From contig CAVVWN010000007.1 in assembly GCA_963752045.1 (NCBI GenBank), positions 157,961-221,960 on the forward strand: a DNA stretch of 64,000 bases, in the 5' to 3' direction. The translations under genes and the position numbers were made by a program. Origin of the DNA: an uncultured Acidobacteriota bacterium. Its GTDB lineage: Bacteria > Acidobacteriota > Vicinamibacteria > Vicinamibacterales > SCN-69-37. Every line of letters starts with the position of its first letter. Within the stretch, counting starts at the first letter, position 1. Shown piece after piece: positions 1 through 55,415 of the stretch. The notes under the pieces were generated by a model that made no database searches, was not told the DNA's origin, and worked only from the letters and a program-made list of their open reading frames with translations.

Positions 1-240
1 CCCCGCGATGTTGCCCGTGCCGATCGAGGCGGCAAGCGCGGTCATGAACGCCTGAAACGGCGTGAGCGCGCCGCCGGCCTCCGCCGACTGCTTCGCAACC
101 ATCGCCCGGAATGCGTCCGGCAGGCGACGCACCTGCACGAATCCCAGCCGGAACGTGAGAAACACGCCTCCGCCGAGCAGCGTCCAGATGACGAGGTACT
201 GGAAGAGAAAGGTGGTCAGCGTGTCGATCGCCTGGGACAT
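1..240 (-). CDS. alanine/glycine:cation symporter (AGCS family), N-terminal fragment running off the window
   Basis: Not in the ORF track (no stop in window). Manual translation from ATG 240-238 gives MSQAIDTLTTFLFQYLVIWTLLGGGVFLTFRLGFVQVRRLPDAFRAMVAKQSAEAGGALTPFQAFMTALAASIGTGNIAG. The FQAxxTALAAxxGTGNIAG block is the conserved AGCS N-terminal signature. Confidence 0.75.
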   Translation of the reverse strand, partial: MSQAIDTLTTFLFQYLVIWTLLGGGVFLTFRLGFVQVRRLPDAFRAMVAKQSAEAGGALTPFQAFMTALAASIGTGNIAG

Positions 241-258
241 CGAGGCGGATCGTAACCT

Positions 259-437
259 GAATCTGGGATCTGGGATCTGGGATCTGGGGGCATCTGGCGA
301 TCTGCCGATCTGCCGATCTGGTGACCGTGAGTCCGGCGGTCGCGTCGGCGGGCCACGGCTCGGCTCGACGGCCGATCCCAGATCCGAAGATCCCAGATGC
401 CGTGAGATCCCAGATCCCCAGATCCCAGATTCAGATG
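259..437. repeat. foldback of GATC-containing 7/8-bp tandem arrays (left arm 261-323, core 324-373, right arm 374-437)
   Basis: Left arm is 4x ATCTGGG then 4x ATCTGSYG-type 8-mers. The right arm is the complementary GATCCCA-type array. Outer ends GAATCTGGGATCTGGG (259-) and CCCAGATCCCAGATTC (-432) are complementary, with one indel further in. It fills the gap between the SDR stop (431-433) and the symporter ATG (240). Confidence 0.9.
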
Positions 438-5589: not shown

Positions 5590-6334
<745 letters not shown>

Positions 6335-6351
<17 letters not shown>

Positions 6352-7204
6352 GGTCCGGCACGCCCTGCGGCTGCACGAGGCGAAGCAGCACATCCACTTC
6401 TCCGGAGCCCTCGATGGCGGTCACGACGAGAAGCGCGGTGACCGACGAACCGGCGGTGCCGGCCGAGCGCAGGCGCGTCACCGACATGGCCCCGTCGGAC
6501 GTCTGCCCCTCAACGGTCCAACCGGCCGCCGACAGCTGACGTGCGTAGTGCGCGCCGATGGCGTCAGCGCCGCGTGAGCTCGTCAGTCGAATCGATGAGT
6601 ACAACGCGTCGGGGGTACCGCCCATGCTCGCTCGTCCGGAGCGCGCGCCCTCCGGCACGGGCATCGACGGCAACGGCACGTTCGACACGACGGAGGGCGC
6701 CTGCACGAGACAGGCGCGGCCGCGCTCGGTGGCGACCGAGGCGCGCACGTAGCTGCCCCCTTCGGAACGGGATAGGAAGCTCAGCGTCGCGAACTGATCT
6801 CCACGACAGAGCGACAGACTCGGGCCGGTCTCGCGCGCGGCGAAGCCCGCCGGCCGCAGCGGGTTGATCCAGCCGGCCGACTCGAGCCGCTCTTCGAAAA
6901 CCACCCGCTCGTCGGCCGAAAAGCGCGCGACGATCGCCACCACGGCCGAGAGACCGTCGGTTCCCGCGCTCACGCGGACGAGCGCGCCGGAAGGCAGCAG
7001 GTCGCCCGGAAAACCCGCCGGCGCCGAACCCACGCGCAGATCGAACGGCCGGTTCCCGAATCCCTCCGGACCGGAGAGGAGCACGGCCATGGCCTCGCGT
7101 GGTACGGACTCACCGCCCTGCGCGGCCGGCGATGCCGCCGTACGGGACGCATGTGGCAACACGATGGAGACGGCGGCAAGCACGGTCAGCGTGCGGACGG
7201 TCAT
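6335..7204 (-). CDS. hypothetical secreted protein
   Basis: ORF trimmed to MTVRTLTVLAAVSIVLPHA (signal-like). No family recognised. Its 3' end overlaps the cysQ 3' end by 17 nt (convergent). Confidence 0.5.
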
Positions 7205-13878: not shown

Positions 13879-13987
13879 GGTAACGACAGGTACGACAGGT
13901 ACGACGGGTACGACAGGTACGACAGGTACGACAGGTACGACAGGTACGACAGGTACGACGGGTACGACGGGTACGACGGGTGCCTCA
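13879..13987. repeat. tandem array of 9-bp unit GGTACGAC(A/G): 10 perfect units (13889-13978) plus a degenerate unit on each side
   Basis: Counted by hand. It reads (C/T)GTCGTACC on the recQ sense strand and ends 14 nt before the recQ ATG. Confidence 0.95.
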
Positions 13988-13993
13988 TGAAGA

Positions 13994-14039
13994 ATTCGGG
14001 GAGCCGGCCGGGTCTGAGTGGCCCGGTGGCTCCCCGAAT
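13994..14039 (-). terminator. stem-loop terminator candidate downstream of the outer-membrane protein gene
   Basis: Perfect 12-bp arms ATTCGGGGAGCC (13994-14005) and GGCTCCCCGAAT (14028-14039), followed on the minus strand by TTCTTC. It lies 27 nt after the stop at 14067. Confidence 0.6.
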
Positions 14040-14066
14040 GTCGTCAATGCGCCGAAGTGCGTGCGC

Positions 14067-46147: not shown

Positions 46148-47185
46148 ATGGTCTCGCCCGGGCTCTTTCGCATCGTCCGCTGCCCAGACTGTGCGGGTCC
46201 CATTCATCCGGATGCGACGGCCGCCCGCTGCGAGCGCTGCGGCCGCACGTTCGACGCGGCGGCCGGGTATCTGGATCTTCGTCCCTCAACGGCCTTCGCG
46301 GAAAACACGAAGTATCTCGACGCCGAGTTGCACGCCGACGCCCGCCACGAGACGATCGCGCCGCCGCTGCTCGGGTCGAAGATCCGGCAGGACATGCTGC
46401 GGGCGTTTCTCGCGCCGGGTGCGGGCGACCGCGCAATCGACCTCGGCTGCGGGAGCGGACGCGCGCTTGCGTGGAACACGGGATCGGGAGCCGTGCTCAC
46501 GGGCATCGACATCAGCCCGTACTTCGCTCGTGAAGCGCTTGCCGGTCACGACCTGCTGCTCGGCGACCTTCGGCGGCTTCCCCTGCGCGACGCCGCCTTC
46601 ACAAAGGCCTGGACGCTCGACGTCGTCGAGCACGTCTCGCCCGATGCGCTCGAGCAGGTGCTCGCCGAAGCGAACCGCGTGCTCGCTCCAGGCGGCGCCC
46701 TGTTCGTCTACTCGCACGTGCGCAAGAACGGCTGGATCGCCGGCGGGGTCCGTGCGGTCAACAGGCTCGCCGCGCTGCTCGATCGGGCCGGCGCGCTCGA
46801 CCTCACGCAGGAACGGCTTCGCAAGTCCGACCATCTCAATCCGCTCGCCGACCACGAGGAACTGGAAGCGTTCGCCGCCCGCGCCGGATTCAGCATCGAG
46901 CGCATCACCTTCTATACGCCGATCGTCGGCGCACTCGTCGAGAACGTCCTTGTTCGCATGGGGGAACGGATGCTCGCAAGGCGGGCGGTCAGCGCCGGCG
47001 CGGCCGCGAACGCCCACGATCCGGCCGCCCTCAAGGCTGCCCGATCGGCCGCCAAGGCCCGGGTGCGCGCGAAAGGCGCAACCTACCGGATACTCGTGCT
47101 GCTCTCGGCCGTCATGAAGCTGGACATCTGGCTCTTCGGTCGCATCAGATCGGGGCCGTTCTTTGCGCTGCTCAGGAAGACATGA
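46148..47185 (+). CDS. class I SAM-dependent methyltransferase with N-terminal zinc-ribbon and C-terminal hydrophobic helix
   Basis: It has CPDCAG...CERCG, SAM motif I IDLGCGSGR, post-I LLLGDLRRLP and a C-terminal YRILVLLSAVMKLDIWLFG. Confidence 0.8.
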   Translation: MVSPGLFRIVRCPDCAGPIHPDATAARCERCGRTFDAAAGYLDLRPSTAFAENTKYLDAELHADARHETIAPPLLGSKIRQDMLRAFLAPGAGDRAIDLGCGSGRALAWNTGSGAVLTGIDISPYFAREALAGHDLLLGDLRRLPLRDAAFTKAWTLDVVEHVSPDALEQVLAEANRVLAPGGALFVYSHVRKNGWIAGGVRAVNRLAALLDRAGALDLTQERLRKSDHLNPLADHEELEAFAARAGFSIERITFYTPIVGALVENVLVRMGERMLARRAVSAGAAANAHDPAALKAARSAAKARVRAKGATYRILVLLSAVMKLDIWLFGRIRSGPFFALLRKT

Positions 47186-47188
47186 GCG

Positions 47189-47233
47189 GGTACGACAGGT
47201 ACGACGGGTACGACGGGTACGACGGGTACGTGG
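47189..47233. repeat. tandem array GGTACGAC(A/G), 4 units plus 1 degenerate (left arm of a foldback)
   Basis: It starts 3 nt after the methyltransferase TGA (47183-47185). The unit is the same as at 13889-13978. Confidence 0.95.
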
Positions 47234-47383
47234 AACGAGCTGGCGCTGGCCAGCCTTCTTCATGTGCTGGAGACGGTCGAATCAGAGAAGAGCTCGTGAG
47301 CCCTGTGGGAGTAGTGGCGAGCCGGCTTCGGTCACGTGCGGGAGTCCGCATTTGAGTAGAAGATGACAAGCTTCAGGTTCCTC

Positions 47384-47452
47384 GTACCCGTCGTACCCGT
47401 CGTACCTGTCGTACCTGTCGTACCCGTCGTACCCGTCGTACCTGTCGTACCC
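47384..47452. repeat. tandem array GTACC(C/T)GTC, 7 units plus a partial unit (right arm, reverse complement of the left arm)
   Basis: Counted by hand. It ends 11 nt before ATG 47464 of the first GT4 gene. Confidence 0.95.
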
Positions 47453-47463
47453 GAGATCTCTTG

Positions 47464-54771: not shown

Positions 54772-54787
54772 CCCGCCGGGCGATCGG

Positions 54788-55294
54788 TCAGCGCAGACCC
54801 GCGCGCACGCGCAGGCCGGCAATCCAGCCGGCGATGGCCTCGGACCGATCCGCCGCCGGGACGCTCCCAAAACGGTTCTCGATGTACGCCCGGATCGTCA
54901 CTGCATCTTTGAGCCAGGCCTCGAGCTCGTCCTCACTCATCCCGGCTTCCCCGAGCAGGACCCGCGTATCGACAGCGGGATCGAGCCGCGACCGCCAGCG
55001 TTCGCGTTCGGCGTCGACGAGATCCGGATCGGGCGGCGCGGGATTGAACCGGGCCACCTCGGCCACCATGAGCCAGTGGTTCTCGAGCGCGCGCTGAATG
55101 TCCGCATCGGTCGTCGCCTCGGCCGCGACGAGCTGCAACTGACGAGCCCGTCTCACATCGAGCTGGGTGATCACCTGATTACCCACACGCACGAGCACCC
55201 GGTCGACCTCGACCTGGGCGCCAACAGGAACGGCCGCAACGCCCATCAACACACCCATGACCGCCGAAGCCCACCGTGCCCTCGAAGATCTCAT
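54788..55294 (-). CDS. periplasmic SurA-N-terminal-domain-like chaperone candidate
   Basis: ORF trimmed to MRSSRARWASAVMGVLMGVAAVPVGA (signal). VDRVLVRVGNQVITQLDVRRA resembles the SurA_N start. It lies last in the tamB-bamA gene string. Confidence 0.45.
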   Translation of the reverse strand: MRSSRARWASAVMGVLMGVAAVPVGAQVEVDRVLVRVGNQVITQLDVRRARQLQLVAAEATTDADIQRALENHWLMVAEVARFNPAPPDPDLVDAERERWRSRLDPAVDTRVLLGEAGMSEDELEAWLKDAVTIRAYIENRFGSVPAADRSEAIAGWIAGLRVRAGLR

Positions 55295-55320
55295 CACCAC
55301 CACCCCCGTCGCCGCACCCC

Positions 55321-55415
55321 CGAACCCCGAACCCTCGGACCGTCGGACCGTCGGACCCCCGGACCTTCGGACCCCCGGACCGTCGGACCGTCGGACCCTC
55401 GGACCCTCGGACCTC
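55321..55415. repeat. tandem array of 8-bp unit CGGACCNN: 10 units (55336-55415) preceded by 2 degenerate CGAACCC units
   Basis: Counted by hand. It directly abuts the TAG (55416-55418) of the bamA-type gene and ends 26 nt before ATG 55294 of the next gene. The 8-bp period is incompatible with coding. Confidence 0.95.

Follow-up and report, generated by a model that had tools for sequence, protein, structure and literature searches.

Inverted short-tandem-repeat arrays separating an SDR gene from a Na+/alanine symporter gene in Vicinamibacterales

In an uncultured Acidobacteriota bacterium (Vicinamibacteria; Vicinamibacterales; SCN-69-37), an SDR gene and a Na+/alanine symporter gene lie 190 nt apart, and the gap is occupied by two inverted arrays, each comprising eight ATCTGGG-type units of 7-10 nt. 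The arrays span positions 257-434 of the window, i.e., the whole stretch of 64,000 nt analyzed here (contig CAVVWN010000007.1, positions 157,961 to 221,960). By comparing the orthologous junctions, we found foldbacks homologous to this element across lineages, short junctions elsewhere, concerted change of the two arms, and loss of GATC sites, G3 tracts, and the Shine-Dalgarno motif. On balance, we lean towards regarding the element as a palindrome of two short-tandem-repeat arrays that is not mobile and evolves locally. It would correspond, in Vicinamibacterales, to the G-rich heptamer repeats found between genes of Xanthomonas and Nostoc, would most likely have originated by slippage and template switching, and may act as an intercistronic hairpin.

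Layout and folding of the element

Both of the flanking genes are encoded on the minus strand. The upstream cistron is the SDR gene (434-1210; Pfam adh_short_C2, 4e-52), which is 100% identical to P0001 and of which the orthologues (75-88% identity) possess the same ...SNI* terminus. The downstream cistron is the symporter gene (Pfam Na_Ala_symp), of which only the 5' part (1-240) is present as the gene is cut by the window edge; this part can be aligned to 442-aa orthologues. The gap had been judged in a sequence-only reading to be something other than ordinary spacer, and this view held, as the space from the SDR stop codon up to approximately 16 nt ahead of the symporter ATG is taken up by a foldback with arms of tandem subrepeats. 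The stop codon TGA (431-433, minus strand) resides in the right arm, in agreement with the same reading, and within the outermost perfect inverted repeat, in which 257-274 pair with 417-434. This perfect pairing had been anticipated but covers 18 nt instead of 16 nt; likewise, the left arm ends close to the symporter ATG (238-240, minus strand) but at a distance of 16 nt instead of approximately 20 nt. The ...ATC TGA of the SDR gene itself can be read as unit 0 of the array, and AAC ATC TGA is kept in the orthologous loci L106, L108, L109, L117, and L118.

The two complementary 7/8-mer arrays around a GC-rich core, as described from the sequence alone, were confirmed by TRF, which detected on the plus strand four perfect copies of ATCTGGG (x4.0; 261-288), 3.6 copies of ATCTGCCG (292-320), and a GATCCCA-type array complementary to the left arm (374-430). 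The G-rich 5' arm (371-434, minus strand) reads on the gene strand CTGA followed by eight units, ATCTGGG, ATCTGGGG, ATCTGGG, ATCTCACGGC, ATCTGGG, ATCTTCGG, ATCTGGG, and ATCGGCCG, the fourth of which is irregular, is 10 nt long, and recurs in the homologous arm of L117. The C-rich 3' arm (257-323, minus strand) is the complement of the 5' arm and reads on the plus strand CTGA, four copies of ATCTGGG, GGC, ATCTGGCG, ATCTGCCG, ATCTGCCG, and ATCTGGTG. The core between them (324-370; approximately 50 nt) is GC-rich (~80% G+C; the base composition of the window is 68.7% G+C), partly self-paired, and locus-specific. Between the hairpin base and the symporter ATG, there is a tail of 16 nt (GTTACGATCCGCCTCG; 241-256, minus strand), which contains no Shine-Dalgarno motif and is equal in length in all three element-bearing lineages. 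In the gene-strand reading, both arms consist of eight ATCT-initiated units in the identical order, including the irregular 10-nt fourth unit (ATCTCACGGC in one arm and ATCTGGGGGC in the other), and they align in register at 59 of the 74 columns. The matching unit order and the irregular unit common to both arms indicate that the array was already heterogeneous when it was duplicated as a whole in inverted orientation, rather than two arrays having expanded independently. ATCTGGG occurs at a single locus in the 64 kb; arrays scattered within genes would have spoken against the sequence-only reading, and no two-unit match was found elsewhere in the window, be it genic or intergenic.

A long imperfect hairpin had been expected from the arms, and folding bore this out. 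The RNA fold of 241-445 had a free energy of -129.5 kcal/mol (z = -9.5) for the gene strand and -133.7 kcal/mol (z = -9.4) for the opposite strand, the corresponding value with DNA parameters was -75.2 kcal/mol (z = -10.0), and none of the shuffles of this region folded equally well. The homologous foldbacks gave -168 kcal/mol (z = -11.5) in L117 and -47.5 kcal/mol (z = -3.1) in L118, in which the stem is much reduced with two units per arm. In all three lineages (the window, L117, and L118), the two strands of the element folded equally well. The sense RNA is not singled out, and a palindrome process at the DNA level fits this symmetry.

No terminator-like site was detected in 1-1500 in the search for intrinsic terminators, defined by a GC-rich stem of 5-20 bp, a loop of 3-8 nt, and a U-tract behind it (the stem is followed by GGUUACGAUCC), and a promoter scan at the locus found nothing. 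No Rfam 15 model matched at or above its gathering score; the best match, a plant miRNA-precursor model (29.7 bits vs. 197), reflects generic hairpin likeness. We rejected a CRISPR array, as the units are contiguous without spacers, and set aside an invertible promoter (inverton), as the core is only ~50 nt long, contains no promoter-like site, and does not differ in orientation between the window and L117. Long spurious open reading frames (216-473 on the minus strand and 62-1231 on the plus strand) run through the repeat, as no frame on either strand of an ATCTGGG array is interrupted by a stop codon. Arrays of this type are a possible source of false gene calls.

Orthologous junctions and similar arrays elsewhere

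The SDR homologues place the source in Vicinamibacterales (Acidobacteriota). We recovered the DUF547-SDR-symporter synteny from independent assemblies and compared the SDR–symporter junctions. No element was found in L106, of which the junction is 7 nt long (ATC TGA, TGAggtattcATG, and ATG), or in L113 with a junction of 15 nt. The junctions of L110-112, L115, and L116 are 39 nt long, have no repeats, and follow a TAG stop. In L109 (32 nt), a short array of three units (ATCTGA ATCCGA ATCCGA), the first of which is the gene's terminal ATCTGA at the stop codon, is followed by agcctgtc, another ATCTGA, gggccc, and the ATG. Homologous foldbacks were found in L117 and L125 (two samples, identical; 261 nt) and, in a reduced form, in L118-L124 (seven samples, identical; 111 nt). 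When the window, L117, and L118 were aligned, the arms, only the start of the core (approximately 15 nt), and the 16-nt tail were homologous, and the irregular fourth unit ATCTCAxxGC was common to the window and the homologous foldbacks.

The sequence-only reading had proposed to compare unit counts among relatives, and the homologous foldbacks do differ in this respect. The SDR proteins of L117 and L118 are 97.7% identical to each other, and the arms on both sides comprise eight and two units, respectively (a difference of approximately seven units on one arm and approximately five on the other). The two foldbacks have the same centre and differ also by three copies of an internal 16-nt repeat; four tandem copies of this unit (TCTGCCGTCACGCAAG) are present in the core of L117 (3833-3897) and one copy in L118. 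The SDR–symporter junction is a general hotspot for tandem duplication. Directly after ATCTGA, L109 bears an insertion of 26 nt (within 831-862), which is flanked by ATCTGA and ends in a repeated TGA, and L113 bears an insertion of 8 nt (within 875-889), which is flanked by TGA and ends likewise in a repeated TGA. These small insertions suggest recurrent duplication at the stop codon even without a foldback.

A Shine-Dalgarno motif (GAGG or GGAG at -8/-9) was found in all five junction types without the element; among the element-bearing lineages, the window and L118 lack such a motif, and L117 has no more than AGGA at -13. In the gene tree (1014 nt), the window grouped with the element-free L106 with a bootstrap support of 82%, and L117/118 grouped with the element-free L113 with a bootstrap support of 96%. 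As the element-bearing lineages are each placed beside an element-free one, a single origin of the element requires several clean losses or recombination. The tree is too star-like to date gain or loss. As a further point against our preferred reading, the element is dispensable in several lineages and its stem is much reduced in L118. Junctions of 7, 15, 32, 39, 111, 190, and 261 nt form a series that would agree with an array growing or shrinking from the gene's own stop, in an order of states that the gene tree does not set.

In the outer stem, all of the 49 pairs were standard in both the window and L117, and none of them was broken. Four pairs were changed on both sides (three from G-C to A-U and one from C-G to G-C) and another four on one side to G.U; in a shuffle control on this covariation, 38 of 500 shuffles did as well, which makes the signal from the two sequences a weak one. 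The four one-sided changes all give G.U on the sense strand, and a sense-strand RNA signature was read from them but dropped, because both strands fold equally in the three lineages.

Further intergenic arrays were found at three loci of the window. A second foldback (47187-47453) consists of five copies of CGGGTACGA (47187-47230) and eight copies of TCGTACCCG (47382-47453), both representing the 9-mer GGTACGACR, around a core of 150 nt (59% G+C). This foldback (-163.5 kcal/mol, z = -9.2) fills the whole gap from the stop codon of a methyltransferase gene (47183-47185) to the ATG of a glycosyltransferase gene (47464). Eleven tandem copies of the same 9-mer (ACGACRGGT; 13883-13981), an array that is C-rich on the coding strand, reside 18 nt upstream of the recQ ATG; the observation covers also 13993-14040, and a separate GC-rich stem-loop (ttcggggagcc...ggctccccgaa) lies between this array and the OprF-like gene upstream. 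Independent slippage hardly accounts for the identical 9-mer at two loci that are 33 kb apart. The TAG of an Omp85-family gene is followed, at a distance of 2 nt, by twelve copies of the 8-mer GGACCBTC (as read on the plus strand; 55316-55413), of which the minus strand is the G-rich one. Here, the gap between the convergent genes (54772-55415) is unusually long (~645 nt). In each of the six arrays of the window, the coding strand is G-rich if the array follows a stop and C-rich if it precedes a start, and many units of the 9-mer arrays carry AGG in place of GGG.

Arrays of a similar kind were detected in other Vicinamibacteria, among them two very large foldbacks, both of which extend from a stop codon in the direction of the next gene. 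In L053 (6178-6553), a locus of the MFD04944 MAG, a TAG stop is followed by nine copies of GGGGATCT, a core of 160 nt, and fifteen copies of CCCCAGAT. In L055 of the same MAG (6016-6681), 16 and 30 units of the GGGGATCT octamer are arranged around a core of 300 nt between a stop and a start codon; the core bears an additional long hairpin (gcaggcctgaaggcctgcgctaca...tgtagcgcagaccttcaggtctgc). Sixteen copies of GGGATCT, the first of which is 19 nt past a stop, were found in L033 (Vicinamibacterales SMAG_U1515), and L106, L107, and L110 have short intergenic 7-8-mer arrays of yet other units. The foldbacks at different loci have arm units in common and unrelated cores. As the same units recur at separate loci (GGTACGACR twice in the window and GGGGATCT in L053 and L055), slippage purely in situ is insufficient to explain them.

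In a scan of representative genomes for three copies of ATCTGGG, at least 105 loci were found in many phyla; the scan had no control heptamer, and we claim no enrichment. Among the matches listed, an inverted partner array was nearby, in either order, in approximately 15 of 102 (~15%). The arrays among these matches (e.g., L007, L044, L084, L090, and L103-L105) often grade into one-base variants that keep GATC, such as GATCTGA, GATCCGG, and GGGGATC in other phyla. The orientation rule known from the Xanthomonas repeats was supported across phyla, among the matches listed, only upstream of starts (11 vs. 2); the corresponding counts after stops were 15 vs. 11.

GATC sites, G tracts, mobility, and assembly

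The sequence-only reading counted at least 12 GATC sites and laid emphasis on them. The count stands, as there are 12 in 259-437, whereas 1.19 are expected from the window's own GATC density, and no other 179-nt window in the 64 kb exceeds this number. The emphasis does not. A GATC cluster could in principle act through methylation, for instance in binding of the Dam/SeqA/MutH type, as a restriction decoy, or in epigenetic switching, and a density approximately ten times the local one, together with the GATC kept by many unit variants in other phyla, might be taken in its favor. Nevertheless, the element contains 13 GATC sites in the window, three in L117, and none in L118, and the hairpin is retained in both orthologues; the spacing of 7-8 nt simply tracks the unit length, and GATC is over-represented 2.3-fold window-wide (6.7 per kb vs. 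2.9 per kb expected from base composition), so that it is neither avoided nor special. There is no sign in the window of GATC avoidance by a restriction system. Since the orthologous elements have only three and no GATC, the high count in the window is a by-product of the GGG|ATCT unit junction, and a role of the sites in methylation is very improbable. Likewise, the number of G3 tracts drops from five in the window to three in L117, of which the units are ATCTGGA/TCCAGAT, and one in L118. This decrease weighs against a regulatory G-quadruplex, in which four G3 tracts would fold either on the template DNA immediately before the symporter gene or in the RNA past the SDR stop. The quadruplex would then influence transcription or translation, with the hairpin as a competing structure. 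Such a reading is invited by 265-290 on the plus strand (the template strand of both genes), a perfect (G3N4)x3 G5, of which the unit count is exactly four, as favored in Xanthomonas (PMC4692102); it is one of only four canonical motifs in the 64 kb on both strands, and its placement fits the rule that arrays past a stop are G-rich on the coding strand and those at most 50 bp ahead of a start are G-rich on the non-coding strand (PMC4692102). On the other hand, the canonical motif is absent from L117/L118, the gene-strand arm has loops of 12-14 nt between its G3 tracts, many units of the window's 9-mer arrays have AGG in place of GGG, and the complementary arm 50 nt away would out-compete the quadruplex (approximately -130 kcal/mol). 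We therefore doubt that the element works as a G-quadruplex. As the pairing is kept while GATC sites and G3 tracts are lost, the hairpin, rather than methylation sites or G-quadruplexes, is the property that is maintained, at least at the SDR–symporter locus, and the same evidence points towards palindrome dynamics or an RNA hairpin.

The framing of the element as REP/MITE-type, also found in the sequence-only reading, did not survive the comparison. Had a mobile element of the MITE-like or foldback type, with subrepeat-built inverted arms at its ends, inserted at the SDR stop codon, this would account for the long inverted arms, the short junctions in close relatives, the patchy spread on the gene tree, and the same arm units at several loci of Vicinamibacteria and in many phyla. 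However, the flanks (...GAACAT and GTTACG...) have no direct repeat as a target-site duplication, and the palindrome extends 4 nt into the host's conserved ...C TGA (i.e., into its ...ATC TGA). There is no second copy within the 64 kb, the only match to a 22-mer of the core in the metagenome collection was a chance one inside a transketolase gene, the cores at different loci are unrelated, and no transposase is linked to the element, just as the Xanthomonas repeats are not associated with IS (PMC4692102). With no target duplication, and no dispersed core in the 64 kb and the metagenome collection, the element is not a MITE by these tests, and its insertion as a MITE-like or foldback mobile element is, in our opinion, unlikely. 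Even less credible is an artefact of assembly, by which a repeat was collapsed or chimeric. Tandem repeats and palindromes are indeed error-prone in assembly, and several of the cross-phylum matches reside at contig ends; nevertheless, homologous foldbacks were found at the same junction in independent assemblies (two samples for L117 and L125, seven for L118-L124), and the flanking genes are intact and collinear. This outcome, which the sequence-only reading had named as one that would undo it, is very unlikely.

Relation to known repeats, possible origin, and effect

Heptamer repeats of Xanthomonas (GGGAATC; GGGANTN), with approximately 185 sites per genome, and those of Nostoc (GGGGAYT) were described by Rehm et al. 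(2015; PLoS One 10:e0144275, PMC4692102). These repeats are intergenic in 89-93% of cases, mostly between genes of the same direction. The coding strand is the G-rich one in repeats that overlap a stop or follow it at 0-50 bp, and the non-coding strand in those at most 50 bp before a start. The Xanthomonas genomes contain 70-75 convergent inverted pairs each, with a preference for four units; the species differ in unit number but retain the pair type, no link to IS was found, and oligonucleotides of the repeats form G-quadruplexes in vitro (PMC4692102). The architecture is thus not as unusual for bacteria as it had seemed from the sequence alone. The element at the SDR–symporter junction resembles them in having at least two tandem units (14 bp or more) of ~7 nt with a G3 tract (here eight per arm), in being intergenic between same-direction ORFs, in the G-rich arm that starts from the stop codon and the C-rich arm that ends 16 nt before the ATG, and in the convergent opposite-strand pairing, which is found also in 47187-47453, L053, and L055. 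In contrast, its units are GGGATCT/ATCTGGG with the 8-mers ATCTGSCG (GGGGATCT in other Vicinamibacteria) and not GGGAATC or GGGGAYT, it is found in another phylum (Acidobacteriota), its arms are not uniform and include an irregular unit of 10 nt, the G3 tracts are lost in the orthologues, and the same genome builds a foldback also from the 9-mer GGTACGACR and arrays from the 8-mer GGACCBTC. Judging from the sequences, the element is akin to the repeats of Rehm et al. (2015) by architecture and placement but not a member by the sequence definition in that paper.

A looser relationship can be drawn to the TAACTGA direct repeats and the cyanobacterial STRR heptamers (MacGregor, 2015; PMC4679880), which are intergenic, near start codons, and spread over many unrelated lineages by an unexplained mechanism. 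In the BOGUAY genome, 169 direct sets and a single inverted set were found, and a binding site of a translational regulator was proposed (PMC4679880). Intergenic heptamer arrays are common to these systems and ours, but those are almost always direct and made of other units. The STRR heptamers have reportedly been known since 1990, and the over-representation of intergenic heptamers in bacteria is said to have been shown in 2007.

REP/BIME sequences, such as that of malE-malF, are dispensable, strain-variable intercistronic palindromes, of which the RNA hairpins block 3' exonucleases and alter the expression ratio in an operon. REPs are single palindromes of 20-40 nt with a conserved GTAG/CGTC head; RAYT transposases mobilise them, and their near-identical copies number in the hundreds (PMC3733652). 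As the arms of the element are SSR arrays of ~65 nt without a GTAG/CGTC head, the likeness is one of functional analogy only. Eukaryotic Foldback (FB) transposons also have long inverted arms built from tandem subrepeats. The element shares long inverted arms with FB transposons and MITEs but differs from them in having no target-site duplication, conserved body, or multiple copies, and in the host stop contained in its arm. What is new here is the paired heptamer-array architecture in the distant phylum Acidobacteriota and with different units; the kind is already known from Xanthomonas.

We propose the following scenario for the origin of the element as a palindromic pair of repeat arrays. 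The ancestral junction would have been ...AAC ATC TGA GGT AYT S ATG, in which GAGG, the Shine-Dalgarno motif of the symporter gene, overlapped the SDR stop; ATC TGA GGT A.. of this ancestral type is visible in L106, L113, and, outside its insert, L109. Replication slippage would have amplified ATCTGR-type units directly past the stop, although coincidence or microhomology capture could also explain the match between the ATCTGA seed and the unit. The heterogeneous array would then have been copied in inverted orientation with CTGA of the stop included, and the two arms would have changed together thereafter in both unit sequence and unit number, most likely by slippage and template switching within the palindrome; selection for pairing may also have caused this concerted change. 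Template switching at quasi-palindromes is a mutational process that homogenises and extends inverted-repeat arms, and it has been documented in E. coli as well as in yeast and primates for short inverted repeats, the length of which is in the tens of nt (PMC7202029, PMC8604942, PMC13100816). Arms built from SSRs and the phylum Acidobacteriota are beyond the range in which it has been demonstrated.

RNase III prefers double-stranded RNA of 20 bp or more. The element would be transcribed with both genes and form a stem of ~60 bp, the base of which would join the SDR stop to the site 16 nt before the symporter ATG. The hairpin may then replace tight translational coupling by a dsRNA barrier or a processing site, of the RNase III or 3'-exonuclease-block type, and thereby change the ratio of SDR to symporter expression. 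By analogy with REP hairpins and from the preference of RNase III for dsRNA, we infer that the element possibly acts as a processing site or an exonuclease barrier that uncouples the two genes.

A broader conjecture, to which we assign little probability, is that Vicinamibacteria, and Xanthomonas by the literature, may possess palindromic SSR pairs that maintain themselves and form a class of their own. Such pairs would fill intercistronic gaps from the stop codon to the translation-initiation region with a fixed polarity (the G-rich arm first in the direction of transcription). The hairpin in them would be functional and, by bringing the stop codon next to the site 16 nt ahead of the following ATG, preserve termination-reinitiation coupling, as a prokaryotic ribosome 'shunt', after the loss of the stop-overlapping Shine-Dalgarno motif. 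If this is the case, changes in unit number would tune the coupling. Palindromic repeat arrays like the one described here break short-read assemblies and create spurious ORFs, and they may reset operon coupling in abundant soil bacteria.
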